Source of the DNA: Macrostomum lignano
Lineage: Eukaryota
Length of the DNA stretch: 64,000 nucleotides
Direction of reading: 5' to 3'
Assembly (NCBI GenBank): GCA_002269645.1
Contig: NIVC01000717.1
Span: forward strand, 326,822-390,821
This document shows, in pieces, positions 17,193 to 55,644 of this stretch (its first letter is position 1; each line of letters begins with the position of its first letter). A program made the position numbers and the translations under genes. The notes under the pieces are model-generated. The model saw only the letters and a list, made by a program, of their open reading frames with translations, made no database searches and had not been told where the DNA came from.

Positions 17193-17634
17193 GTAAGTTG
17201 CCTAGGTGGTCTGTTGATGACTGGTAGCACCACCAGACAGGGCCAGCACCAGTAACAGCACCAACATCTACAGTACAACAAAAAACCCACGACATCTACA
17301 TCTACAACAACACCCACAAGACCAAAATCTACAACAACAACAGCCACAACGCCGACATCCACAGCAACAACACCAAAAACATCTACAAAATCACCCACAG
17401 CCCTAACATCCACAGCACCAACATTCATAAAACAACACCCACAAGACAAACATCCGAACAAAAACACCCACAAGACCGAAAATTACAACAACACCCACAA
17501 CAGCACCAACAATACCACCACCGACAACAACATGTCTAACAAAGTTTAAAGTCTAAAATCAGAGAGCGCGCCACAGTTTTTCGTCAGTCAACAAAAAAAT
17601 GACATAAAACACGCCAAAAAAACTTTCTCCGCAG

Positions 17635-18475
17635 CGGTGCTACACGTCATTCGTGGCCGGGCTCGCAGCCGGCTCGCGGCGGGCCACTGTCGTTGCCAAC
17701 AAGATTCGGCCAGAGATTCTTCCCACTGGGCTACTGGAAAGAATTTCGCGCACTTTCCAAACTGCATTTGCCAGCATTTCTTACCTGCTTCTTCCAGGTG
17801 TTCCTGCAGACAATCAGCGTGATCATGTGCGGCCACCTGTCCAAGGAGCAGCTGGATGCGGCCGCTCTAGCCTGCACTCTCATCAACGTGGCTGGCATGG
17901 GAATCGGCCTGGGCCTGTCAACCGGCTGCGACACCTACTTCGCCCAGACCTACGGCAGCGCCTACAAAAAACGAGTCGGTATCTACCTGCAACGCAGTCT
18001 GATCGTTATGTACATGTTTCTGGTTCCTGTGTACTGCTTGCACCTGCACATGAAACCGCTGTTGCTACTGTTAGGCCAGGACCCAGTGGTCAGCGATATG
18101 GCCTCGCACTACATCCTGATCTTCATGCCGGGCGTGTTCTTTGACTACACATTCCTAGTGCTGGCCCGGTACATGCAGACCCAGAACCGGGTGACTCCGC
18201 CGCTCATCTGCGCCTTCATCGGCAACTTGTTCAACGCGGTGTCCCAGTACGTGGCTATCTACGTGCTGGGCTATCAGTACGAGGCGTCGGCTGCCTGCCA
18301 GGCTGCGTCCTTGATGGTGATGTGCGCCAGCCTCATCATCTACATCCGCGTGTCGGGAGTCTATAAGGAAACCTGGGACGGCTGGACCCTGGAGGCTCTC
18401 TACGATATTAAAGGATTTGTTCGGCTGGCGGTGCCGGGACTCTTGCTGGTTGCTTTGGAGGAATTCTGTTATGAG
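17635..18475 (+). CDS. SLC47A: MATE/SLC47 transporter exon 2
   Basis: Acceptor CTTTCTCCGCAG|; motifs MCGHLSKEQLDAAALA, GLSTGCDTYFAQTYG, GIYLQRS, LAVPG..LEEFCYE; donor GAG|GTGAG at 18476. Confidence 0.92.
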
Positions 18476-19578
18476 GTGAGCCTGCGCAAACCCCCGAGAG
18501 TCTTTTAGGACGTCATTTGTGATGTGTTGCAACTCATAAAGTTTCTAAACTTTGTCAAACAAAGATCGAAATCTGATTGTTTGGGTCCTCGTTGTACAAT
18601 CACCATTGAGTATGCAAGCTACATACTACTACATTTAGCAACTACATTACTACAAGTAGGTAAATAAGTAATTCACAGAGCTGTTACAGCAGCAATTCCT
18701 GTCAAATTTGCTGCGGCAACCTTGGGCAGCCTGCACAGAACTGTGTTCTTCAAGACGAACAACACTGCACTACATCGTTCCAGATATGTCTCCAGAACCC
18801 CTCCGAGCATGTCTGAGACTTTGTAAAGACTTCGAAAAGTTCAGCAAGGGTGCCCGAATGCCAGAATACATCTGAATCCAGTTGCGACTGGGGGTTCTGA
18901 ATGCCTGCTGGTGATCAGCTGGTGATCAGGATGTCACGGCGGCGGCAAGTTGACAGAACTTTTGCATGCTCGTGATTCATGCACACTGAATCTCGCATTA
19001 AAGACATGCGTGTAAATGTATGGCCGGGCGTCGTAGTCTTCGTGGTCTGGCAATGATTTGGGGCTAAAATGGAATCTCGGCTTGGCTCTGCTCGTGCAAT
19101 AAACGTTCTCGTGGCCCAACCCCCAAGGCACAGTGAAGTGTACATGCCTAACGATAAATAAAGTTCGAGCAGCTGTACACTCCTGTGTGAGTGTGTGCCT
19201 GTGCGTATGACTGCGTACGTATCCGCGCGCTTGTGTGCCTGCTCAGGGGAGTCGGCGGAATGGGCAGTAATGCCTCTCGCCGGTTGTGTTTGACAATGGT
19301 ATATCCTTCTGCATCTTCTGCATCCCGACTGCAGAAAAGTGCATTGACTAGTGTTTCCACATAGGCGGTTTCCACATTTATAATTATAAATTAAAAATTA
19401 ATCATTTAATAATTAATAATTGGGTGAGTTCGAGAGTAAGTTCGGGGGGCATGTTGCTGATTCCTTTACCGACAGTGTAGTACGAGCGTAACCCGAGGGC
19501 ACACGTTTGCATGTATTGTATGATCCACACTATACTATGGTATCTAAATGTACATGTGCTTCAATTTTTCTCCCTCAG

Positions 19579-20544
19579 GTCGGCACCTTCATCGCTGGCA
19601 GCATCAGCACATTGCAACTGGCCTCTCAGGGCATTCTCTTCCAGTGCGGCGTTCTATCCTACATGGTCTCCCTGGGCATGTCAATCTCCGTGAACATCCG
19701 CGTCGGGCAGCACATCGGGGCCAGACAGGTGGAGAAAGCGAAGCACACGTACAGAGTGGCAGTCACCATGATTCTGACTACGTCAACGATACTGTGCATC
19801 GTGTTCGCCACCTGCCAGAAGCAAGTTGCCAGCCTGTTTACAAGCGACCCGATGGTTCTGGAGGCCACCGGAGAGATCCTCACCGTCTACGCCCCGTTCG
19901 CGTACGCCGACGGTTTGTCCGCCACGGCATCCGGTGTGCTGAAGGGCAGCGGCCGTCAGCTTATTGGTGCGATTGTCAACATTGTCGCGTACTACCTGGT
20001 GGCTCTGCCCATCGGCATCCCGCTGAGTCTGCTCACCCCGATGCAGATCAGCGGCTTCTGGGTCGGCCTTCTCATCGGTTTAACAGGCGAGACCTTCGTG
20101 TTCTGGCTGATCATCTGGCGCACCAACTGGCACAAGGAGGTCCGCGCAGCGGCCGGTCGAATCACCGGGCAGAGGGCCAACTCGACTCTGTCGGCCAGGT
20201 CGCCTCTGATTGCCGATGAGCAGCCCGCAGTGGACTCTGAGCAAGCCATCCTGCCGCCCAGGCCGCGTCGCATCCGTCGCGAGTCTCGCGTCTATTCTGG
20301 GCCCTACGACAGCGCCATCGAGTTCGACCCGGGCCGGCCACCGAAGCTGGGGCCTCTCCGGCCGGTGCTGATCCGCCAGGGCCTGATCTGGTTCTGCCTG
20401 CTGCTGGTTCTGTCAGCTGCAGCTGTTGCCAGGTCCTATCAGGACCAGTACCTGCCAGTGCACTGGCGCCGGCTGTGCATAATGCAGAGCCAATTGAACA
20501 ACTCCATGGATGTATCACCTGGTGCCAACCTTACCTATTGCTGA
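19579..20544 (+). CDS. SLC47A: MATE/SLC47 transporter exon 3
   Basis: Acceptor TTTTTCTCCCTCAG|; NIRVGQHIGA, GVLKGSGRQLIGAIVNIVAYYLVALPIG, and an extra C-terminal TM as in vertebrate MATE1; spliced product 627 aa. Confidence 0.92.
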   Translation, partial: VGTFIAGSISTLQLASQGILFQCGVLSYMVSLGMSISVNIRVGQHIGARQVEKAKHTYRVAVTMILTTSTILCIVFATCQKQVASLFTSDPMVLEATGEILTVYAPFAYADGLSATASGVLKGSGRQLIGAIVNIVAYYLVALPIGIPLSLLTPMQISGFWVGLLIGLTGETFVFWLIIWRTNWHKEVRAAAGRITGQRANSTLSARSPLIADEQPAVDSEQAILPPRPRRIRRESRVYSGPYDSAIEFDPGRPPKLGPLRPVLIRQGLIWFCLLLVLSAAAVARSYQDQYLPVHWRRLCIMQSQLNNSMDVSPGANLTYC

Positions 20545-42154: not shown

Positions 42155-42424
42155 TCAGAGAATGTCAGAGTGACAGAGAATGTGAGAGCGAGGAATATGA
42201 AAGTGAGTGAGAATGTGAGAGTGAGTGAGAATGTGAGAGTAAGTGAGAATGTGAGAGTGAGTGAGAATGTGAGAGTGAGTGAGAATGTGAGAGTAAGTGA
42301 GAATGTGAGAGTGAGTGAGAATGTGAGAGTGAGTGAGAATGTGAGAGCGAGGAATATGAGAGTGAGTGAGAATGTGAGAGCGAGGAATATGAGAGTGAGT
42401 AAGAATGTGAGAGCGAGGAATATG
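42155..42424. repeat. 18/27-bp minisatellite, left part (interrupted by the LTR element)
   Basis: GAGAGTGAGTGAGAATGT and GAGAGCGAGGAATAT units. Confidence 0.93.
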
Positions 42425-43337
42425 TGTAGAGAGTTATTAGACCATACCGTAATGCTCTACTTAAAGTAATATTCTAAGGAAGTCAATTTCTTTCAAAATG
42501 AGTCATATCTATTTTAGGAATCACGCGCAAACAGAATGATTTAGAACCCTACATTGTTTGATCAAGGAACCGGATTTCAACAGCTGTATTTGTTTAACTC
42601 CATATATGGTAATGCTCAAACATGCATGACCGCTTAATCAAACATTTTTGACCTAAGTAAATACCCAATCCCAAACCGGTTTTTCTCCAAAATTTTGCTA
42701 TAAATATAAGTGAAAATTCAAGTCAAAAATTCAGACTCGGAGCGGTCTCTAAGAAGACACCGAAGAAATAAGAAGACCAATCTCTGAGGGACCATCCCTG
42801 TCCAATTGGTAAGCGTTTACCCGATTTAGTTAATTGTTAATAGCGCTAATAAAGTGATTGATTGAGTATACGAGAGCAGTTCATTGTCGATACATTTGAG
42901 AAAGGCCTCCTTGTTTCCTAGGATATTCCTAGAGGATTTATTGATTTAATTGAGTTATCCGTTACGTTTCGGACGTAACGAAGAAGCCGCCCTTCAGGAG
43001 GACCTATCACAGAAAATTAGAGAATTCAATTGTTCATTAGGGCGCAAGTTCTATTGTGAATTCCGAGCTCGAGGACCGTTAAGAAGTTCTGATTCGCTCT
43101 CGTTTGGTCGACCCACAGATAAAGGACACCAAAGAAAAACAGTGGTTCACCGGAACCGGTCGCCGTAACCGCTCAGCAAGCTTGCTATCCCGACGCGCCA
43201 CAGAACTCCACCGGCTGCCGACCCCAAGAGGATCCGCTGAAGTAAGTTATTTGAACTGATAAATACCTAGGCACTTGTTCCCCCGTGTCTAGAAGTGGGA
43301 GTTTTTGAGTGACTGATCACCACTCTTAAACTCTTCA
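42425..43337 (+). repeat. 5' LTR (913 bp)
   Basis: TGTAGA...CTTCA; TATAAATA at 42699, AATAAA at 42848; differs from the 3' LTR by 2 substitutions and one 5-nt indel on manual comparison. Confidence 0.97.
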
Positions 43338-43339
43338 AC

Positions 43340-43356
43340 TGGTGATCTCGCCCAGG
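43340..43356 (+). promoter_or_regulatory. Primer-binding site (tRNA not assigned)
   Basis: TGGTGATCTCGCCCAGG starts 2 nt after the 5' LTR. Confidence 0.75.
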
Positions 43357-43703
43357 CTCAAGCGCTACCAGGCTAGATCGCTGAAAGTACTTTGACACAA
43401 GTCCTTTGCGCAAATTTTTCTGAACTTTTTACCGAACCGCCATTGTTTGCATAGAGACCCTTTGATTCTTCGTGCACCGTTTTATACTTTTGTTAAATTT
43501 GCGAATATCCTATCTCAATTTCTTTCTTTGGTAAAGGCAACACAGAATTTTTTTTGCCCCCGTGTCCATTTTCCTTTCTTCCTTTAAGTAAATAAGAGCT
43601 TGCACACACACACAACACTTGTTCGCCACTTTGAAAGTCCAATCTGGAAAATCCTTTGGAAATTGATCCAGATCTGGTCCTCTTGCCGTTCCCATTTGAA
43701 AAT

Positions 43704-44600
43704 ATGGCTCGAAGAAACCCTACAGTGCATCGCGATGTCAAGGAAACTGTTGGAATGTATACCATGGATAAAGATTTTAACACCTTCATTGAACACTTCG
43801 ACCTTGTAACTCGCGAATACGGACTACAAAATCCAGAAAAGGCACTTCTTCTTCCTCCACTGTTAGAAGGTACTGCTCGAGAAATTTATGGCAAACTAAA
43901 TGCCGCCGCACAGCAAGACTATCATACTTTAGTTACACAACTGAGAGCACAATTCGCCAGATGTGGAACCAATCGATCTGTGCTTCTACACAAACTTCAT
44001 AATCGAAAAATGAGTCCGACGGAATCCTTCCTTACTTTCGTCGATGACGTCCGCAAAATTATTAAAGCGTTGCACCAGCCACCACCACCGAACCCAGGAG
44101 CTCAGCCTATCGGACCAGCAGAACTAGCTGCACGAGAAAGACAACGCCTTGCTGACCAAGAACAAAGCCTAATCCTCCATGTCATTAATAATGCTCAACC
44201 TTCGCTGCGAGACAGGTTGTTAAGAGAAACCATTGAGACAGAGGAACAATTAATTCGTTGCGGCATGCAATGGGAAGCAAGTGCCCCACTCCTGACTTCT
44301 CGTAGTAGTGATACGACACAATTGGGAGAACAATTGAGCAAACTCATGCAGCAGTACCAAACTTCTGCAATCATGCCACAGCGACAGAGATACGCTCCGC
44401 CACCCACTTGTTACACCTGTGGAAGAATTGGTCATTACGCCAGAGACTGCCGATCACGTGGCAATCCAAGACAATATAATGACAACAGAAGAAAAAATTG
44501 GACTCGTCCTCAAAATCGCAATTGGAACCCACCACAGAATAGACAAGGAAATGCCTTGGTACCTTATCGACAACAAAGAAATCCTCCTCCTCCAAGACAG
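43704..44600 (+). CDS. gag: Gag region: capsid-like domain and CCHC nucleocapsid knuckle
   Basis: FIEHFDLV..LLEGTAREIYGKL..LRAQF capsid pattern; CYTCGRIGHYARDC at 44409-44450; basic R/N/Q-rich tail. Confidence 0.9.
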
Positions 44601-47600
44601 CCTACTCAGGTCCGCAGACAATATGCTCAAGCTATTGAACCGGAATACACTCAAGTCATCGAACCAGAGTTTAAGATAGAGGATCTTATGCCGGATTTCA
44701 CAATCAATGTCCTTGAGGAGTTTGAAAGACGAAAAGATAGCACAAGCAGCGAAAGTAGCTGCATGATGGATTCTCTGTTTGAAGAAGATCCACCCATTCC
44801 TACCTCTTCTAAAGCAAGTCCAGTCTTCCGAGAAAACAAAAGACAACAACAAACTATTTCTAAGCAACAAAGCAATCTATTTAAAGTTCCGACGATCGAC
44901 AATCTTTCGGAAACTCACCGAGATGACAATTTCCAGGATCGTAAAGAAATGACAACACTTGAAGAAGACAGAGATCCAGCAACTTCTCAAAACATCTTTG
45001 AAGAAAGCGTTGACATGTTGCAGGTCCTAGTCGACGATATAGACCTGTCAGAAACACCTCCAACACAGGAACCAGACTATGAAAATATTGTCTCCCCTAG
45101 TCCAGTCCACGAAAAATGGAAACATGACAAGGCCACGAACACACAATCTAACCATTCGACAGATGAAAAGTTCGTACAGACGGAGGATGACACATATGTT
45201 TCAATGAACCTAGACTATGAAAGCGAATATGATGAACCGATAACAATAATGGAACCGGTTAACACTCCAACTGATGAGAATACAACTACACATCTTACCA
45301 ATATATCAAAATCAACCAACTTTATGCGTCCGATGTTGCAATCGCAGCCACCCACACCATTACCATGTTCCAACAAATGGCACTTTTCGACTCGCCTTAC
45401 TCCTCCGCCGTATCCTGAAGATAGTCATGACGAGATTGAAGACACTCCACCAGTACCAACAAGACGAAAGAAAAAACATCCGCTACTGCAATGCTTCCTC
45501 ACGATCTTGATGATGGCAATTGTTCCCACGGTACTGCCGTCTCCATCTCCAATGATCTGTCCCACTGATGGAGACATCCAGCCAGTCATTTACAAGATTC
45601 CTACGGAAATCAAATGCAGTTACTTTAAGACAAACCAAACCAAGCCACTACCACTAACTATTGAAATATACAAAGCAAATACAAAGAAGCATCGACAAAT
45701 GGGAATTGTGTGCTTCCGAGACAAGGATGAAATTGAAAAGGTTTGGCTGGTACAATGGAACCGAATCAGGTATTGGCAAACTTCGATGATGGTATCACAA
45801 GAAGAATGCTTTCGGTGGAATCAAACTCTGTTTTCCGAAGATGGTCAATTAAAACTTCATGAGACGTCCGCCAGCGGAGCACAGCTATTTCGCACAAAAA
45901 ATGTAGCCGATGGAAGATATGTCCATTATCATCAATCACGATGGCCTACATACTCAGTCTACAATAGCTACCTCATCCGAAATGTTTTATTCTACCACAA
46001 TCCATTTGACAACATGGAATCCTTACAGCTACCACTCGACCAGTGTCACTACAGCTCTGGATATTGTTCTACCCCTAACTACAACAAAGAAGAAGCTCAA
46101 AATTTACCCCTAGCACCGACTTATTTCCACGACTATCGATACCAAATTGAATACAGATCGGATTCCCGCTATGAGGAGCCTAGCCGAACCCGCAAATATT
46201 TCATTGCATGGGAAGTTAAAACTGAAATTGACTGCAAGCTACAAAAATATCACACTGTTAAAGGAAAATTGCTATCTAACACCTTCCTTGCCGACTCAGG
46301 AGATCTCGCTCTTACATTTCCTAAGCAACCAAGCTACACACACTTGAAATGTAAAGACAAGGACGAGCAACTAATCCTCTCCGACCAAGAAATACCAATC
46401 GTGCTTAAGGATATGGATAAGAATGTGTTCCTGAAAGTAGTAAATGGAACCTATCAGAGAAAAGATGTCATAGAACGACATAAGCGAGACCTACCTAAGC
46501 CTTCTCTAGTATCAGCACGACTTCTGGCAGCAAAACTAGCCGCCATGGAACATAAGCTACATAAGCAACTGAACTATCTGCATCGATCCATGGTCAAACT
46601 AACGTGCCGAATGCACGAAACCAGCCTGAATTACGCAAGACAGAACTATTATGTCAATCCCACGACGACCTTTAGGAAAATCACAGGTATTGAAGATGTC
46701 TTGGCAATTCCAGTTTACGGATATTTGCTAATCTATAAATGTACACCGATCCACCACTTTAACATCTTGCCATCAAATACTACAACAACCTGTTACGACA
46801 AACCTCGAATCGAGGCCTTTTACAAGGGAAGGCGCATCCGAGGATTTTTGGACACTGTCCACAATATTATTGTTGGAACCGCCATTCCAAGACCATGTAC
46901 AAACTCAGCCAACTATTTCAACTTAAACGATCTACTACACCAAATTTCGTCGGCAGGCGATATTAAAAACATTTCAAACTCGCAAGTTATTGTTGACGAG
47001 ACTTACGAAATGACGGACCTCGAAGTAAAATTCAATAAAACAACATACAAACCCTTTGGAGATATTAAACTAGACGAAATCACCCCAGGATGGACTATCA
47101 ACGATTTCCTGCAGGTTTTTATTTCACAACGGCAAGTCCTGACAAAACTGTTCACGGAACGACAGCAACGAGATGCAGATCGACTTACATCTCCAATAGG
47201 AATGACTATGCACAATGCCATTCAATCGTTTTGGTCAAATAGCTTTCTGGACCTAATACAAGGACGAGGAAGTCTATACCAAGGTTTTCTTTTCTCCAGT
47301 GCTTGCATTGTATGGATCTACTTAGTGCTACTCATTCTTGTCACAGTAGTCCGATGCGCAGCAAGAAATTGTCCACAAACTCGAGGCATCTTTCAAATAA
47401 TCAAACAAACAGACACTACCACTACAGGAGAAGAACCAACCGAAGAGACACCTATGCAAGTTCAAGAAATTCGACCAGAACCTACAGCACCAGAAACCTC
47501 AAACATTTATCCAAAAATCGATTTCAAGCCAGCAATTCCTCCGCCAATGTCACCTCCACTACCAATCGACCCAAAATGGCCAGCCAACTACGTCTGTACT

Positions 47601-50600
47601 CTCCAAGCCAATATGGGAAGAGCAATGGCTCAAGTACTTGTCAACAACAGGCCCAGCAAAGCACTGCTTGATTCTGGAAGCTCCATCACTGTCATTACTA
47701 AGAGACTATATGACAAACTACAACTTCGAATGCGACCATCATCCATCGCTGTTGCTGGAGCAGGTGGACATGCGCTTAATATCCTTGGACAAGTTGGGAT
47801 TATGCTCAAACTGGCAAATAAACAACTCCCTGTTCAAGCATTTGTTATCGACCACCTTCCAAGTCAAGATGTTATCATTGGAATCGACACATTCCAAAAA
47901 CTGAATTTACCCTTGACATTTGATTTTAACAAACAGACATTCAAACTAGACAACGTAGAACACCCATTGGTCAGCCAAGTTCATTTACAACCTAAAGTTC
48001 ATCTCCGACAAGATGTATTCATACAGCCTGAAAGCACTTGTTGGGTTAAGGCTTATCTAGTAAATAACGAAGACGTCGAAGAAGCTATGATTTTCGAACC
48101 AAGAAAGAAACTACTAACAACAAAGGAAGTTCTAATTCCAACGGCATTGGTCCTGATCACATCAGAAAAAGTTATTCCGGTACAGATTGTCAACCCTCAC
48201 CAACATCCCGTTAAGATCTACGCAGGAACATGCATGGGACACCTCAACACACAAGCCTCCGTCATGCTGATTCAACATACAAAAACAACAAGGATGTCAA
48301 AGCAACAATTCTTACAACAAATTGATCTCTCGCAAAGTCCCATTACGGAAGGACAAAAAACACAGGTCAGAGATCTACTTTGGAAGTACAATGACGTCTT
48401 TTGTCATCATGATTACGACATTGGTCGCGCTCGCGACATCAAGCAGAAAATCGAACTGCTACCCCACCAGGAACCCATCCAATGCAAACCATACCCAGTA
48501 GCAAAACATCTGCAACAACATTTTGATGAAATCATCGAAAAAATGCTCAAGGCCGGAATCATCAAACGAACAGTCTCAGCATATTCATCACCGTGTCTAC
48601 TAGTTGAAAAAAAGGAAACAAATGAAAGACGACTTGTCTGTGACTTTCGAGTCCTAAATAAATACATCCCCACAGATCAACAAAGTCTACCAAAGATTTC
48701 GGAACTATTGGCACGACTGAATACAGCTACTCTCTTCACCGTATTTGATCTACGACATGGCTTTTGGCAAATTGAACTTGAAGAAGAATCAAAACAATAT
48801 ACAGCATTCAAGACCTACAAGGGAGAAGTCTTTGCGTACCAGAGAAGCCCAATGGGGATTTCCAACTCCCCAGCGACCATGAGCCGCTTAACAGCCTACA
48901 TGCTAGCGGGATGTACGAATCTATTGCATTATGTGGACGATATTCTCGCTTTCGGCGATAATTTCGAACAACTACTGAGTGTCATGGAACAAGCTCTCTT
49001 TCTACTTCAGAAACAAGGACTAAAACTACAACCTACAAAATGTAAATTCTGCAGAGATTCAGTCCGATATCTGGGACATCATGTTTCAGCAAGAGGAATT
49101 TCACCCGACCCTAATAATGTCGAAAAGGTCAAGAAGTTCCCCAAGCCTACAACACTTACAAAACTACAATCATTCCTTGGATTAGCACAGTACTTCCGAA
49201 AATTCTTACCAAACTTCGCGCAAACTGCAAAGCCATTATATGAGTTGTTGAAGTTTCCCAAATGGAAGGAAGAAAATTGGAAAACGGAACAGCAAAACAG
49301 TTTTGATAAAATTAAACAGCAACTAACCAGCGACGCTCTGCTCAAACACCCAGACTTTCAAAAGCCGTTTATTATCGAAACCGATGCATCAGGAAGTGGT
49401 TTAGGAGCTGTACTACTTCAACAAACAGATCAGAAAAAGGAAAAACCAATTGCCTTTATCAGCCGAGCCCTGCGTCCAAATGAAACAAAATGGTCCGCCA
49501 CCGAACGTGAATTACTAGCGATTTTATTCGCTCTACGACAGTTTCATTACTACATCTACGGATCACCGCTACCAACCATCATCCGCACAGACCACGCACC
49601 GCTGACTCATGTTGTCAAAACAAAAGGACAAACGAATAACAGACTTATCCGGATGGTCCTCAAAATTCAGGACTATAACTTTCATCTCGTCTATAAACCA
49701 GGACCTACAAACAAGGCCGCGGATGCGCTATCAAGAGCATATGAAGTCAATGCTGTCCACCCCATTCCAACCATGACGGATCTACTGAAAGCGCAACAAG
49801 AAGATAATTTCTACAAAGCTGTATACGAAGACACAGAAGAAATGCAAAAACCGCTCACCAAGATCGAAAAGAAATTTTTACGGAAACAAGGCAATAATCT
49901 CATCTTCAAAGAACTAGCACTTTACTGGCTGCACAATAATACCCCAAGATTGTACCTACCATACAACTATCGCGCCGCAATCCTACATGAACTACACGAC
50001 ACACCCCTAGCCGGACATTTATCCGCCAAGAAAACAATCCACAGAATAGCCCAGTTCTATTTCTGGCCAACAATGAATGCAGACATCCGCAACTACTGCC
50101 TACAATGCCACTCATGTGCTTCAACAAAGACTGGAAGAAGACAAAAACCAGAACTTCAATCCGTACCAAAGACAACCACATGGGACATTGTATCACTTGA
50201 TATTACCGGACCACTACCGCCAGCTCGACAACATGCTATCGATTACACTTACATTCTTACCGCATTAGACGTGTTCTCTAAATTTGCTGTTGCCATTCCA
50301 CTGCCTGACATTACAGCCACTACAGTTGCAATGGCCTTCTACAATGAAATTATCTGCAAATACGGAACTCCAAAGACACTAACCTCCGACAATGGTACAC
50401 AATTTACGTCGCAACTATTCCAACAGGCGGCTAAATTACTAAATATCCAACAAATTTTCACCTCCACCTACAATCCAAAAGCTAACCTAGTAGAACGATT
50501 CCATAGAAATCTATACGAAATGTTGACACACTTCGTCTATAAGCAACCTGAAGATTGGATCATATACCTGCAGTCAGTGACAATCGCCTACAACAGTGCA

Positions 50601-51146
50601 GTACACCGTTCAACAGAGAACACACCGTTTTTCCTTATGTTCTCTCGAGACTTTCAGCCACCAAGCCTACTAGTTCAAAAACTATTACCTTCTCAGTACG
50701 TGGAAACGCCAACAACACTACAAAAGTTTACTTCGCAGCTACACCTGGCATGGCAAATCGCGAAACACAATTTAGAAAATCAACAGGCAGTAGTCACCAC
50801 CAGCAATCATACATCTACTCTACAAGTCGGAGACATCGTTTACCTACATTACCCTGCGCAACATACACATAAACACGCACTTAAATACAAAGGACCATTC
50901 CGAGTAACGGCATTGGTATCGGCAACAACGGCACGCCTCGCTAATATCCAGGATCCACATCAACCTCAGTTCTATGTTCACATTCAACGTCTAAAACGTA
51001 TCACTAACGACACTACATTCCTCCCAGACCTACAAAATCCAGACCACACAAAAACAACAAATAAACACATTGCCACTGCACACGCCGAAACACAAACAAC
51101 AAACGCACCACCTGTCGGTCATACGTACAACCTAAGACCTCGTTAA
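43704..51146 (+). CDS. gag-env-pol: Single Gag-Env-Pol polyprotein, about 2480 aa from the first ATG
   Basis: One open frame with no stop or frameshift (ORF track 43656-51146; ATG at 43704). Confidence 0.95.
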   Translation: MARRNPTVHRDVKETVGMYTMDKDFNTFIEHFDLVTREYGLQNPEKALLLPPLLEGTAREIYGKLNAAAQQDYHTLVTQLRAQFARCGTNRSVLLHKLHNRKMSPTESFLTFVDDVRKIIKALHQPPPPNPGAQPIGPAELAARERQRLADQEQSLILHVINNAQPSLRDRLLRETIETEEQLIRCGMQWEASAPLLTSRSSDTTQLGEQLSKLMQQYQTSAIMPQRQRYAPPPTCYTCGRIGHYARDCRSRGNPRQYNDNRRKNWTRPQNRNWNPPQNRQGNALVPYRQQRNPPPPRQPTQVRRQYAQAIEPEYTQVIEPEFKIEDLMPDFTINVLEEFERRKDSTSSESSCMMDSLFEEDPPIPTSSKASPVFRENKRQQQTISKQQSNLFKVPTIDNLSETHRDDNFQDRKEMTTLEEDRDPATSQNIFEESVDMLQVLVDDIDLSETPPTQEPDYENIVSPSPVHEKWKHDKATNTQSNHSTDEKFVQTEDDTYVSMNLDYESEYDEPITIMEPVNTPTDENTTTHLTNISKSTNFMRPMLQSQPPTPLPCSNKWHFSTRLTPPPYPEDSHDEIEDTPPVPTRRKKKHPLLQCFLTILMMAIVPTVLPSPSPMICPTDGDIQPVIYKIPTEIKCSYFKTNQTKPLPLTIEIYKANTKKHRQMGIVCFRDKDEIEKVWLVQWNRIRYWQTSMMVSQEECFRWNQTLFSEDGQLKLHETSASGAQLFRTKNVADGRYVHYHQSRWPTYSVYNSYLIRNVLFYHNPFDNMESLQLPLDQCHYSSGYCSTPNYNKEEAQNLPLAPTYFHDYRYQIEYRSDSRYEEPSRTRKYFIAWEVKTEIDCKLQKYHTVKGKLLSNTFLADSGDLALTFPKQPSYTHLKCKDKDEQLILSDQEIPIVLKDMDKNVFLKVVNGTYQRKDVIERHKRDLPKPSLVSARLLAAKLAAMEHKLHKQLNYLHRSMVKLTCRMHETSLNYARQNYYVNPTTTFRKITGIEDVLAIPVYGYLLIYKCTPIHHFNILPSNTTTTCYDKPRIEAFYKGRRIRGFLDTVHNIIVGTAIPRPCTNSANYFNLNDLLHQISSAGDIKNISNSQVIVDETYEMTDLEVKFNKTTYKPFGDIKLDEITPGWTINDFLQVFISQRQVLTKLFTERQQRDADRLTSPIGMTMHNAIQSFWSNSFLDLIQGRGSLYQGFLFSSACIVWIYLVLLILVTVVRCAARNCPQTRGIFQIIKQTDTTTTGEEPTEETPMQVQEIRPEPTAPETSNIYPKIDFKPAIPPPMSPPLPIDPKWPANYVCTLQANMGRAMAQVLVNNRPSKALLDSGSSITVITKRLYDKLQLRMRPSSIAVAGAGGHALNILGQVGIMLKLANKQLPVQAFVIDHLPSQDVIIGIDTFQKLNLPLTFDFNKQTFKLDNVEHPLVSQVHLQPKVHLRQDVFIQPESTCWVKAYLVNNEDVEEAMIFEPRKKLLTTKEVLIPTALVLITSEKVIPVQIVNPHQHPVKIYAGTCMGHLNTQASVMLIQHTKTTRMSKQQFLQQIDLSQSPITEGQKTQVRDLLWKYNDVFCHHDYDIGRARDIKQKIELLPHQEPIQCKPYPVAKHLQQHFDEIIEKMLKAGIIKRTVSAYSSPCLLVEKKETNERRLVCDFRVLNKYIPTDQQSLPKISELLARLNTATLFTVFDLRHGFWQIELEEESKQYTAFKTYKGEVFAYQRSPMGISNSPATMSRLTAYMLAGCTNLLHYVDDILAFGDNFEQLLSVMEQALFLLQKQGLKLQPTKCKFCRDSVRYLGHHVSARGISPDPNNVEKVKKFPKPTTLTKLQSFLGLAQYFRKFLPNFAQTAKPLYELLKFPKWKEENWKTEQQNSFDKIKQQLTSDALLKHPDFQKPFIIETDASGSGLGAVLLQQTDQKKEKPIAFISRALRPNETKWSATERELLAILFALRQFHYYIYGSPLPTIIRTDHAPLTHVVKTKGQTNNRLIRMVLKIQDYNFHLVYKPGPTNKAADALSRAYEVNAVHPIPTMTDLLKAQQEDNFYKAVYEDTEEMQKPLTKIEKKFLRKQGNNLIFKELALYWLHNNTPRLYLPYNYRAAILHELHDTPLAGHLSAKKTIHRIAQFYFWPTMNADIRNYCLQCHSCASTKTGRRQKPELQSVPKTTTWDIVSLDITGPLPPARQHAIDYTYILTALDVFSKFAVAIPLPDITATTVAMAFYNEIICKYGTPKTLTSDNGTQFTSQLFQQAAKLLNIQQIFTSTYNPKANLVERFHRNLYEMLTHFVYKQPEDWIIYLQSVTIAYNSAVHRSTENTPFFLMFSRDFQPPSLLVQKLLPSQYVETPTTLQKFTSQLHLAWQIAKHNLENQQAVVTTSNHTSTLQVGDIVYLHYPAQHTHKHALKYKGPFRVTALVSATTARLANIQDPHQPQFYVHIQRLKRITNDTTFLPDLQNPDHTKTTNKHIATAHAETQTTNAPPVGHTYNLRPR
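45480..47360 (+). CDS. env: Env-like class III fusion glycoprotein (herpes gB/chuvirus G-like) embedded in the polyprotein
   Basis: Signal-like stretch after RRKKK; 12 ectodomain Cys; 6 N-glycan sequons; RHKR furin site at 46476-46487; heptad helix; VNPTTTFRKITGIEDVLAIPVYGYLLIYKCTPI resembles the gB NP...GDV...C motif; TM at 47286-47351. Confidence 0.8.
47600..51146 (+). CDS. pol: Pol region: aspartic protease, RT, RNase H, integrase
   Basis: LLDSG at 47664; RLVCDFR, DLRHGFWQI, YVDD at 48930; ETDASG, ERELLA, TDHAPL; H-H-C-C zinc finger, LDITGP, SDNGTQF, VERFH. Confidence 0.97.
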
Positions 51147-51277: not shown

Positions 51278-51928
51278 ATGGATTGTCCTATCTGTCTCGG
51301 AGAATTTTCATGTAAACTACCTTGTATATGTGTCAATAGACACCAGGTGTGTGGTTCTTGCTTAAGCCTTGCACATTACAAAAAACCTTTAAAAAATTGC
51401 CCTATGTGTCGAGGTAATCTCCGTCAATGCATGATATGCAACTCCTGGCGCACTGAACAATATTGCTTAAATCAACATTTTATGTGCACACAATGTATTA
51501 AGAAGCTTGCTTATCGCTCCATTTGTCAGTGTCCTATATGCGATGCCACCCCTTTACCTAAAGTTAACAACAAACTTGCATGCATTCAAGCGGACTACAA
51601 CCTACAGCTTCACCCATTCACTTATGCTCTTTTTCCATCACATGCTATAATTATCCGCCTCAGATCATGGCCCATACCACGTGCTGCTCATAAAACACGT
51701 AAATACCTCGTTCGCTATTCCTCTTCCTACGGTTCTAGACTCCGGCAATTATCTCCACAAGAAATTGAACATAAGCTGTTTAAAATTGTTAACGATATGA
51801 ATTTTCACCCATGCCCCATCCTCTGTACAACTCTACCTGCACTCATTCTGCGTAATGAGGACTTGTCTTATATATTACCACCCCAAGAATCATATGACTA
51901 TAATAGTTCCGCTTCAGAAATTGATTAA
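51278..51928 (+). CDS. Accessory ORF A: tandem RING-HC fingers and an unknown C-terminal domain (216 aa)
   Basis: C-x2-C-x11-C-x3-H-x2-C-x2-C-x12-C-x2-C, followed immediately by CMIC..CLNQHFMCTQC..CPIC. Confidence 0.8.
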   Translation: MDCPICLGEFSCKLPCICVNRHQVCGSCLSLAHYKKPLKNCPMCRGNLRQCMICNSWRTEQYCLNQHFMCTQCIKKLAYRSICQCPICDATPLPKVNNKLACIQADYNLQLHPFTYALFPSHAIIIRLRSWPIPRAAHKTRKYLVRYSSSYGSRLRQLSPQEIEHKLFKIVNDMNFHPCPILCTTLPALILRNEDLSYILPPQESYDYNSSASEID

Positions 51929-52001: not shown

Positions 52002-52601
52002 ATGGATAGCGACGAGTGCATTGTTTGTTATGAAGACACTGAACAGTATGTCTACTGTCAGCATGGGCATAAGTTCTGCTATAACTGCTGCACAACGGAT
52101 AGAATAGACAAATGCCCGCTATGCCGCGCACCACCTACCCTGTGCCAGGTATGCAATACAACACCGCAACAAAGGATGTGCGCCAACGGACACTGGGTCT
52201 GCCGAGATTGTGCTCTAAAAATTCGGTGCCGCGACTATAAGCATTGCATAACTTGTGCAGCGCCAATATCTAAGGAAATTTACGCCGGAACAACAACATT
52301 ACCAAAGATCCAACTTACAAAGGAGACCATGGACAGTATGACGGCCAAGGAACTAGCAACAGCTATACGAACCTGGCCAATACCATTCAACAAGAGAGAC
52401 CATTTGGAATATCTTTTTGACTTGGTACGTCAATATGCGGCGCATCCAATAAATACTACGAGTACAACTGAAGAGATCTACCTGGAATTCCTCAACGCCA
52501 CCGAATCAACACAATTTACGCCGATACAGCACTTACTGTGGCCACTCGCGAGATTGACAACCAAAGTAAACGATATACTGAATAATACGCTTTCCTATTA
52601 A
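52002..52601 (+). CDS. Accessory ORF B: paralogous tandem RING-HC protein (199 aa from ATG 52002)
   Basis: CIVC..CQHGHKFCYNC..CPLC, then CQVC..CANGHWVCRDC..CITC; shares R-x-WPIP with ORF A. Confidence 0.8.
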   Translation: MDSDECIVCYEDTEQYVYCQHGHKFCYNCCTTDRIDKCPLCRAPPTLCQVCNTTPQQRMCANGHWVCRDCALKIRCRDYKHCITCAAPISKEIYAGTTTLPKIQLTKETMDSMTAKELATAIRTWPIPFNKRDHLEYLFDLVRQYAAHPINTTSTTEEIYLEFLNATESTQFTPIQHLLWPLARLTTKVNDILNNTLSY

Positions 52602-52780
52602 CAATAACAATGCATCCTGCCAAGCAACACAATAACAATGTGACCTACCTATCTACCTATCCATCTACTATACTACTACTGGTTCAAAATTTCTAATCCT
52701 TAAATACATTTTCATGTTTATTAGAAGATAAAACCCCACTTCACCGCTTTAACTTTAAAATTCGGGACGAATTTTTCGTG

Positions 52781-52791
52781 AAAAGGGGAGA
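52781..52791 (+). promoter_or_regulatory. Polypurine tract
   Basis: AAAAGGGGAGA, 3 nt before the 3' LTR. Confidence 0.9.
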
Positions 52792-52794
52792 TAT

Positions 52795-53712
52795 TGTAGA
52801 GAGTTATTAGACCATACCGTAATGCTCTACTTAAAGTAATATTCTAAGGAAGTCAATTTCTTTCAAAATGAGTCATATCTATTTTAGGAATCACGCGCAA
52901 ACAGAATGATTTAGAACCCTACATTGTTTGATCAAGGAACCGGATTTCAACAGCTGTATTTGTTTAACTCCATATATGGTAATGCTCAAACATGCATGAC
53001 CGCTTAATCAAACATTTTTGACCTAAGTAAATACCCAATCCCAAACCGGTTTTTCTCCAAAATTTTGCTATAAATATAAGTGAAAATTCAAGTCAAAAAT
53101 TCAGACTCGGAGCGGTCTCTAAGAAGACACCGAAGAAATAAGAAGACCAATCTCTGAGGGACCATCCCTGTCCAATTGGTAAGCGTTTACCCGATTTACT
53201 TAATTGTTAATAGCGCTAATAAAGTGATTGATTGAGTATACGAGAGCAGTTCATTGTCGATACATTTGAGAAAGGCCTCCTTGTTTCCTAGGATATTCCT
53301 AGAGGATTTATTGATTTAATTGAGTTATCCGTTACGTTTCGGACGTAACGAAGAAGCCGCCCTTCAGGAGGACCTATCACAGAAAATTAGAGAATTCAAT
53401 TGTTCATTAGGGCGCACGTTCTATTGTGAATTCCGAGCTCGAGGACCGTTAAGAAGTTCTGATTCGCTCTCGTTTGGTCGACCCACAGATAAAGTTAAGG
53501 ACACCAAAGAAAAACAGTGGTTCACCGGAACCGGTCGCCGTAACCGCTCAGCAAGCTTGCTATCCCGACGCGCCACAGAACTCCACCGGCTGCCGACCCC
53601 AAGAGGATCCGCTGAAGTAAGTTATTTGAACTGATAAATACCTAGGCACTTGTTCCCCCGTGTCTAGAAGTGGGAGTTTTTGAGTGACTGATCACCACTC
53701 TTAAACTCTTCA
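52795..53712 (+). repeat. 3' LTR (918 bp)
   Basis: Near-identical to 42425-43337 plus a 5-nt insertion near 53494. Confidence 0.97.
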
Positions 53713-54925
53713 TATGAGAGTGAGTGAGAATGTGAGAGCGAGGAATATGAGAGTGAGTGAGAATGTGAGAGTGAGTGAGAATGTGAGAGTGAGTGAGAAT
53801 GTGAGAGTGAGTGAGAATGTGAGAGTGAGTGAGAATGTGAGAGTGAGTGAGAATGTGAGAGTGAGTGAGAATGTGAGAGCGAGGAATATGAGAGTGAGTG
53901 AGAATGTGAGAGTGAGTGAGAATGTGAGAGTGAGTGAGAATGTGAGAGCGAGGAATATGAGAGTGAGTGAGAATGTGAGAGTGAGTGAGAATGTGAGAGC
54001 GAGGAATATGAGAGTGAGTGAGAATGTCAGAGTGAGTGAGAATGTGAGAGCGAGGAATATGAGAGTGAGTGAGAATGTGAGAGCGAGGAATATGAGAGTG
54101 AGTGAGAATGTCAGAGTGACAGAGAATGTGAGAGCGAGGAATATGAGAGTGAGTGCGAATGTGAGAGTGAGTGAGAATGTGAGAGTGAGTGAGAATGTGA
54201 GAGTGAGTGAGAATGTGAGAGTGAGTGAGAATGTGAGAGTGAGTGAGAATGTGAGAGTGAGTGAGAATGTGAGAGTAAGAATGTGAGTGAGTAAGAATGT
54301 GAGTGAGTAAGAATGTGAGTGAGTGAGAATGTGAGTGAGTAAGAATGTGAGTGAGTAAGAATGTGAGAGTAAGAATGTGAGTGAGTAAGAATGTGAGAGT
54401 AAGAATGTGAGTGAGTAAGAATGTGAGTGAGTAAGAATGTGAGAGTATGAATGTGAGTGAGTAAGAATGTGAGTGAGTAAGAATGTGAGTGAGTAAGAAT
54501 GTGAGTGAGTAAGAATGTGAGTGAGTAAGAATGTGAGTGAGTAAGAATGTGAGTGAGTAAGAATGTGAGTAAGAATGTGAGTGAGTAAGAATGTGAGTGA
54601 GTAAGAATGTGAGTAAGAATGTGAGTGAGTAAGAATGTGAGAGTAAGAATGTGAGTGAGTAAGAATGTGAGCGAGTAAGAATGTGAGAGTAAGAATGTGA
54701 GTGGGTAAGAATGTGAGCGAGTAAGAATGTGAGTGAGTAAGAATGTGAGTGAGTAAGAATGTGAGTGAGTAAGAATGTGAGAGTAAGAATGTGAGTTAGT
54801 AAGAATGTGAGTGAGTAAGAATGTGAGTGAGTAAGAATGTGAGAGTGAGTAAGAATGTGAGTGAGTGAGAATGTGAATGAAATGCGAGGGTGACAGGATG
54901 TGAGAGCGACAGAGAATGTGAGACT
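53713..54925. repeat. Continuation of the 18/27-bp minisatellite, grading into 14-18-bp GTAAGAATGTGAGTGA units
   Basis: Same units as 42155-42424. Confidence 0.93.
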
Positions 54926-55644
54926 TGTTGGCCAATTTGCTGCAGAGGATCCAATATCGCACAATCCCAGCAACTAACATGTATAAGGTGTGCGTGATGC
55001 TGGCCTAGCGGACGAGTTCAAGGAGATATCCGGGAAGCGGCAGATGGCCGCACAGCTTAACACACCCGGGTATTAATTGTGCGCCAAAACGTGAAATGCA
55101 TGGCAATTGGCATTACTCGAATTGTCATCTTTAAAGGATATTCATAACTATGATCCGCATATATAGATTTTGTTATTCGAATAAATATAGGTTCCCCACA
55201 AAACAATGACTATAAAATCGCTTTCTCACGCACAAGTCCATAATGATAACAAAGATATTTTTAAATGATCAGATCAATAATTCCATAATAATCTACTATG
55301 GCAAACAGTTCGGATTCAGAATTTGCATAGTCATATGTCTAGCTTGAATAAATCACAGATGGTTGTTAGTTGTTGCAGTTTACGGATCTATACGGATCTA
55401 TCTTACGGCAATATGCTTATTATATAATAAGCATATTGCCACCATAAAGTTAAGAAATACCGGTATATGTATTAACATTAGCAGCTATAGTTGCAGAGTC
55501 GAATTACGTTGCATTGCAGTTAAAGTTCTGTACGCACAAGCACTGTAGGTTAATTACAGTCTGTAAAAGGTGCGACACTTCAAGACTGAAGATCCAAGCA
55601 GTGTTTAAGGGCCAACAATACTTAAATAATATCAGGCTAGGATG

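Follow-up and report, generated by a model that had tools for sequence, protein, structure and literature searches.

For the errantiviruses of Nematoda, Bryozoa and Platyhelminthes, the published text of Chary and Hayashi (eLife 2026, PMC13524379) reports only ENV proteins of the glycoprotein B (gB) type, in the gene order GAG-ENV-POL. According to the same text, such elements are not monophyletic and their ectodomains lie between a signal and a transmembrane segment or between two transmembrane segments; the flipped ENV-POL order in nematodes is credited to Sacco et al. (2022, J Gen Virol 103:1739), nine flatworm elements are catalogued, one of them from Macrostomum lignano, and the transmission mechanism is called unknown outside Drosophila. 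Here we analyse a stretch of 64,000 nt of the M. lignano genome (assembly GCA_002269645.1, contig NIVC01000717.1, positions 326,822 to 390,821 of the forward strand), referred to below as the window and numbered from its first letter, in which one open reading frame (ORF) at 43704-51146 encodes Gag, Env and Pol. This frame belongs to an intact endogenous retrovirus-like element of the Ty3/gypsy type (Metaviridae), which was inserted recently into the genome of this Macrostomum flatworm.

The frame runs from stop to stop over 43635-51146 and, from its first ATG at 43704, comprises 2,480 amino acids (aa) with zero internal stops. An earlier note, made from the sequence alone, had read in it an uninterrupted succession of capsid, CCHC knuckle, acidic and proline-rich spacer, cysteine-rich ectodomain, transmembrane segment, protease (PR), reverse transcriptase (RT), RNase H (RH) and integrase (IN), and the frame, the Pfam matches and the sequence features bear this out (Table 1). 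The Pol part has the order PR-RT-RH-IN with intact catalytic motifs, and the database matches of RT-RH bear gypsy-type domain sets and names. The full element spans 11,288 nt and carries the marks of Ty3/gypsy, namely a TG...CA pair of long terminal repeats (LTRs), a primer-binding site (PBS), a polypurine tract (PPT) and a short target-site duplication. The two LTRs are more than 99% alike, differing by two substitutions and one 5-nt indel. The earlier note had mentioned none of these marks, nor the two RING ORFs described below.

The same note had taken the in-frame segment from Gag to PR for a class III (gB-like) fusogen, and a gB-type fold was indeed found with AlphaFold, Foldseek and VIA as well as by profile search. 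The ectodomain (aa 613-1192) is enclosed by the internal signal with its hydrophobic stretch and by the transmembrane anchor, and contains exactly 12 cysteines, six N-glycan sequons and a furin site, RHKR, at aa 925-928 (46476-46487). The AlphaFold model obtained from the ectodomain alignment (predicted local distance difference test, pLDDT, 78.5; predicted template-modelling score, pTM, 0.57) is rich in beta structure in its N-terminal half and has a central helix of 47 residues (aa 938-984). In the Foldseek comparison with the PDB, herpesvirus gB accounted for 33 of the 33 rows listed (best E 5.2e-21, TM-score about 0.5), while VIA-align superposed 440 residues on gB with Z 13.0 and a root-mean-square deviation of 9.1. 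A profile built from the window ectodomain and 83 relatives also matched herpesvirus gB chains by sequence (E 1.2e-9). Class III families filled nine of the ten top rows in the ESM Atlas (best score 0.96), a result weakened by a low recognition value. In BFVD, Beihai rhabdo-like virus 3, a member of the Nyamiviridae, and the G protein of Midway nyavirus came out best, among further rows from gB, chuvirus-like and entomopoxvirus proteins; these rows do not single out a donor. The identity of the element and the class III fold of its insert are, in our view, practically certain.

With regard to the individual motifs that had been pointed out, VSQEEC, CHYSSGYC, VWLVQW, RWPTY and the 12 cysteines are all present as written. 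The NP..G..V.A pattern occurs too, with NP at aa 986-987, but in a looser spacing than had been stated. As for the two aromatic fusion-loop candidates, VWLVQW (aa 680-685) caps a beta hairpin of the AlphaFold model, whereas RWPTY lies in the second candidate loop (18 residues at aa 731-748, also delimited as aa 731-750) but at its far, closing end and not at its tip. Both loops with their aromatic residues are seen in the secondary-structure string of the model; in class III fusion proteins, two such hydrophobic loops are neighbours at the end of domain I.

With phmmer, 88 Env relatives were retrieved from 1.84 billion representative sequences, and the closest named relatives are M. lignano proteins. 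Among 89 database relatives, a knuckle precedes Env in 36, a protease motif follows it in 21, both occur in one protein in 15, and five extend from knuckle to integrase. A hydrophobic stretch (Kyte-Doolittle at least 1.5 over 17 aa) stands directly before Env in 37 of the 39 scorable relatives, some of which are near-duplicates; this is a count without a hydropathy control. In an RT-RH tree made by a quick method, with 45 env-less RT rows picked by id order and without reference sequences from BEL/Pao, retroviruses or named clades, the window element falls with protein P0002 (support 99) and the P0004 family (support 98) in a Macrostomum group of five rows. A group containing a Meloidogyne protein (six rows, support 100) is separate from it, and the deep branches are unresolved; a Meloidogyne protein (P0085) also figures among the Env relatives. 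The env profile marked 0 of 119 RT matches as env-bearing, and a metagenome scan with RT-RH gave two short, distant loci. P0004 (M. lignano BOX15_Mlig009479) represents a third, distant gag-env-pol family of the same host group (27% identity in env, 41% in RT-RH), whose Env has a central threonine-rich, mucin-like insert of about 200 aa that contains two furin-like sites.

Concerning the origin of the insert, at least 91 env matches were found in the genome, where 89 of 254 candidates were scored, and 12 of them lie in frames of at least 2,370 aa. The insert is therefore common to sister copies, and the reservation of the earlier note that it might be a host exon or a nested insertion does not hold. 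Among the eight copies fetched, six carry knuckle, Env, furin site, PR, YVDD and integrase tail in one frame and two are broken; the LTR pairs of all eight are 99.0-100% alike. The ratio of non-synonymous to synonymous substitution rates (dN/dS) relative to copy G000:C583 was 0.05 for gag, 0.40 for the spacer, 0.09 for env, 0.02-0.04 for pol and 0.21 for RING-A, the first of two accessory ORFs discussed below, and that of env relative to C391, likewise a diverged copy, was 0.07. Values for RING-B relative to distant copies, in which paralogues may have been paired, were set aside. Of 20 env variants among the 40 of 406 places shown, 12 were synonymous against 30% expected (p 0.005), and none of those listed was a stop. 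Env is under purifying selection, and the family is young and multi-copy. The genome also contains a sister family (env 62-64% and RT-RH 82% identical to the window element), which includes copies with LTRs of 855-867 nt and a span of 10.5 kb or more.

A host exon, a nested insertion or an assembly chimera unique to the window copy was accordingly rejected and has next to no probability. Apart from the in-frame copies, the occurrence in the sister family and the selection just described, the GC content of env (0.417) is like that of pol (0.423) and unlike that of host coding stretches in the window (0.57-0.61). Moreover, contigs of other runs bridge both junctions gap-free (gag-spacer-env, 44457-46514; env-PR-RT, 46507-49889), and the fold of the insert is viral by Foldseek and BFVD. 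In the window subfamily, full-length copies are fewer than non-autonomous derivatives with deletions. Six of the latter have lost 4.4 kb, including half of env and nearly all of pol, and kept the RING ORFs (G000:C525, C1192, C352, C301, C2869 and C2828), three are gag-only (G000:C3022, C70 and C1130), and C4582 has another deletion. Many fragments of these families were also observed in G000:C272, C2121, C87, C1130 and C1405, each contig having almost all of its fragments on a single strand; such fragment-rich contigs could be tandem arrays or one-strand clusters of Piwi-interacting RNA (piRNA).

The coordinates of the element are collected in Table 1. The PBS is followed back to the host, in that a tRNA-Val(AAC) gene whose end, plus CCA, matches it was located in the same genome. 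The insertion split an array of 18-nt tandem repeats, the parts of which lie at 42160-42424 and 53713-55000. Elsewhere in the window (17603-20544, plus strand), translations judged by eye indicate a host gene of at least two exons, which we take to resemble a MATE-family transporter.

Table 1. Features of the M. lignano gag-env-pol element (nucleotide positions in the window; aa positions in the 2,480-aa frame).
Feature	Position	Strand	Remarks
Target-site duplication, left copy	42421..42424	+	TATG; flanks the element; insertion into 18-nt tandem repeat
5' LTR	42425..43337	+	913 nt, TG...CA
Probable GT-AG intron inside LTR	42809..43118	+	Joint in two contig sets guessed to be RNA
PBS	43340..43357	+	18/18 complementary to host tRNA-Val(AAC) 3' end including CCA
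Gag	43704..44468	+	Capsid region and CCHC knuckle (44406-44453)
zf-CCHC	aa 235-250		Pfam
Spacer	44469..45461	+	Basic, then acidic/Pro-rich; fast evolving
Internal signal sequence	45462..45539	+	RRKKK (aa 587-591) and 19-residue hydrophobic stretch (aa 593-611)
Class III (gB-type) fusion ectodomain	45540..47273	+	580 aa (613-1192)
Transmembrane anchor (stop-transfer)	47286..47351	+	aa ~1195-1216
Cytoplasmic tail	47352..47600	+	Pro-rich; joins Env to protease
Pol	47601..51146	+	PR (DSG, aa 1323), RT (YVDD, aa 1743), RNase H, integrase with GPF motif; stop 51144-51146
Aspartyl protease	aa 1306-1404		Pfam
RVT_1	aa 1635-1794		Pfam
RNase H	aa 1859-1991		Pfam
Integrase, overall	aa 2086-2258		Pfam: H2C2 2086-2143, rve 2163-2258
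Accessory ORF A	51278..51928	+	216 aa; two RING-like Cys/His repeats and helical C-terminal part
Accessory ORF B	52002..52601	+	199 aa; two RING-like Cys/His repeats
PPT	52780..52791	+	
3' LTR	52795..53712	+	918 nt
Target-site duplication, right copy	53713..53716	+	TATG

Splice joints were drawn from contigs that are only guessed to be RNA, with 15 of 19 joints shown. The joint of the probable LTR intron was seen in contig sets X15 and X19 and is not listed in X9 or X11; given the guessed nature of the contigs, it suggests that the element is transcribed. The 5' LTR has a TATA-like box near 42699 and its sole AATAAA at 42848; this AATAAA, the only one, would be excised with the intron, which could prevent premature polyadenylation in the 5' LTR. 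Two large joints, 44479>52555 and 46514>50931, were considered as env-skipping or gag-only splicing and rejected. They show microhomology of 7 nt and 5 nt, respectively, have no GT-AG and also exist as genomic copies, and hence are deletion derivatives.

The env of errantiviruses and retroviruses is usually spliced. It could thus be argued that the locus is one frame at the DNA level, while Gag-Pol and Env come from differently spliced RNAs and the fusion is rarely translated, all the more so because the LTR has a good splice donor that is apparently used. We nevertheless find this improbable, as no GT-AG joint leading from gag to pol past env occurs as far as the joints are shown (15 of 19), and both large joints are deletion copies of the genome. 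Furthermore, the unbroken frame and the internal signal are kept in distant relatives, which splicing alone would not demand.

The best overall explanation, which builds on the anatomy of the element, the gB-type fold, the purifying selection on env and the young, multi-copy family, is probably that of an element of the described GAG-ENV-POL type with one membrane-threaded polyprotein, cell-to-cell fusion and RING accessories. Judging from established biology of the endoplasmic reticulum (ER), translation and processing as one polyprotein are likely. The full-length RNA would be translated as a whole, with Gag synthesized in the cytosol, until the internal signal (RRKKK and hydrophobic helix) opens ER translocation of the ectodomain. 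The latter would be glycosylated in the lumen and its N-end released by signal peptidase; the transmembrane segment would then halt transfer, leaving PR-RT-RH-IN back in the cytosol on the Env tail, so that Gag and Pol would both flank the membrane on its cytosolic side. The structural polyproteins of flaviviruses and alphaviruses are threaded through the membrane in a similar manner. The protease of the element may separate Gag from the spacer and release PR, RT and IN, the candidate sites being YAQ/AI, predicted and conserved in the spacer after Gag (near aa 308-312), and the conserved WPxNY predicted as a cut site directly before PR, while the RHKR site of Env would be the target of furin. 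Gag, Env and Pol would begin at a ratio of 1:1:1 on one membrane, where capsids would bud and be studded with trimeric Env. The particles would then fuse with a further cell, passage from soma to germ line inside the same animal being the most probable route, and the RING proteins would be translated from spliced RNAs. For cell-to-cell infection by Env-bearing particles, the predicted outcome, we see the chances as even.

Several points weigh against this reconstruction. The processing of Env, its trimer, the particles and the fusion are all predictions, and a 1:1:1 ratio of Gag, Env and Pol would be wasteful for capsid building. On the side of Env, the Pfam match of the insert to Monjiviricetes_fusion (E 5.5e-5, 21.8 bits) stays below the 27-bit cut-off, the pTM of the model is only 0.57 with TM-scores to gB of about 0.5, and the signal-peptidase site of the window copy departs from the textbook A-X-A. 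The figure for the hydrophobic stretch in relatives has no hydropathy control behind it, and contigs guessed to be RNA would miss rare spliced forms. Finally, derivatives deleted for most of env and pol have multiplied as well, which means that an element can spread without an env of its own.

The spread of the env-deleted derivatives, that is the six with the 4.4-kb deletion and the three gag-only ones, is also what would be expected if Env of this same element and fold were a membrane anchor for assembly or a cell-cell fusogen, with transposition taking place within the expressing cell. This account, which agrees with transmission outside Drosophila being described as unknown in the text of PMC13524379, is possible but rather doubtful. 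Deleted copies can be mobilized in trans, the furin site is kept in six of the eight copies examined, and purifying selection acts on the whole ectodomain and not just on the transmembrane segment (dN/dS 0.07-0.09; 12 of 20 variants synonymous).

Between pol and the PPT, the element carries ORF A and ORF B, which are paralogous (24% over 181 aa, E 4e-13) and conserve their Cys/His positions. ORF B matches zf-C3HC4_3 with 32.6 bits against a cut-off of 27, while ORF A is without a Pfam RING match; a pyrimidine-rich CAG immediately precedes the ATG of ORF B, and ORF B has 139 matches in the genome. RING ORFs also accompany the sister family, one copy of which has two right behind the polyprotein. 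Foldseek rows for the RING ORFs were nearly all RING proteins, none reaching E 0.001, and the ESM Atlas matches to ORF A were all below 0.9. No homologue of ORF B was found at E 0.001 among database proteins of 109-349 aa, nor any in viral contigs, and for the helical C-terminal part no fold was clearly matched (highest Z 6.3; pLDDT of the model 62). A literature search, with subscription papers and Repbase/Dfam outside it, found no RING genes in LTR elements; neither PMC13524379 nor PMC5408684 has the word RING in its main text, and the latter describes extra ORFs of other kinds in rotifer LTR elements. A heat-induced M. lignano transcript, which may or may not be the RING gene of this element, is annotated solely as zf-C3HC4_3 with a score of 32.9 in a supplement (PMC12801592, supplement 2, row 82), close to the 32.6 of ORF B. 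By analogy with viral RING proteins, the pair may tentatively be regarded as accessory to the element, a role as ubiquitin ligases directed at host restriction being the most likely.

A bolder reading would make the family a functional "complex" retrovirus of invertebrates that does not belong to Retroviridae, whose entire virion, with capsid, class III spike and enzymes, would be cut from one flavivirus-style polyprotein threaded through the membrane, whose Env trimers in the ER would trigger the protease, whose particles would pass between cells or animals and whose captured double-RING ligases would serve as a counter-defence in the manner of Vif or ICP0. We consider this unlikely; if true, it would open up the question of how gB-type errantiviruses are transmitted, in a flatworm that regenerates, is amenable to transgenesis and has copies that are young and transcribed. 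In any case, the locus is a clean, young example of the gB-type GAG-ENV-POL class in a laboratory animal, and transmission of this class is called unknown by its cataloguers. Two aspects go beyond their text as far as accessible, namely the single frame, predicted to be membrane-threaded, with an internal signal conserved in distant relatives, and the two double-RING accessory genes, which we call purifying-selected (ORF A dN/dS 0.21).

The gag-env-pol order with a gB-type Env had been put forward in the earlier note as potentially novel. As this architecture is already in print for flatworm errantiviruses (PMC13524379), that claim fails. A literature search found no gag-env-pol retrotransposon reports beyond the work of Chary and Hayashi; the accessible text of PMC13524379 and of its bioRxiv version mentions neither a single frame of the three genes nor RING genes, and no discussion of env was found in that of PMC12801592, which deals with M. 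lignano LTR families. The window element has the features of GAG-ENV-POL gB-type errantiviruses: env between gag and pol, a flanked gB-type ectodomain, uninterrupted genes, LTRs and several copies. The M. lignano element of the catalogue, Platyhelminthes_Rhabditophora_Mlig_errantivirus_2, has 16 copies listed there, LTRs of some 864 nt, a span of about 10.6 kb and the primer site GCGAGATCACCA (PMC13524379). It resembles the window element in its Ty3/gypsy pol, the position of its gB-type Env, its flatworm host and its multiple copies, and the 12-nt primer site is identical. The two differ in size, given the 913- and 918-nt LTRs and the 11,288-nt span in the window. Mlig_errantivirus_2 is probably the sister family, whose 855-867-nt LTRs fit it better, and the window element is thus probably an unlisted close subfamily.

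Among more distant systems, the nematode endogenous retroviruses (Sacco et al., 2022) likewise have ENV before POL in a metavirus, through capture of an RNA-virus glycoprotein as related in the text of PMC13524379. They belong to another host phylum, and the RT-RH group of the Meloidogyne protein (support 100) stands apart from the Macrostomum group. These nematode elements are reportedly built with a continuous gag-env-pro-pol ORF, an Env like the G of Nyamiviridae and extra ORFs; the best BFVD rows of the window Env point to nyamiviruses as well. Atlas virus and the nematode Belpaoviridae, in the text of PMC9094657, similarly combine Gag, Pol and a captured viral glycoprotein in one polyprotein, but are of BEL/Pao type with the order Gag-Pol-Env and a class II Gn-Gc, in contrast to the class III Env of the window element. 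The Drosophila errantiviruses gypsy and ZAM are also Ty3/gypsy elements with env and are the model of soma-to-germ-line infection (PMC13524379), whereas their Env is of the F-type, class I, and is encoded in a separate ORF 3' of pol. Herpesvirus gB and the G proteins of nyamiviruses, chuviruses and rhabdoviruses have the class III fold in common with the window Env at 9-16% identity, but only the latter is embedded in a retroelement polyprotein.

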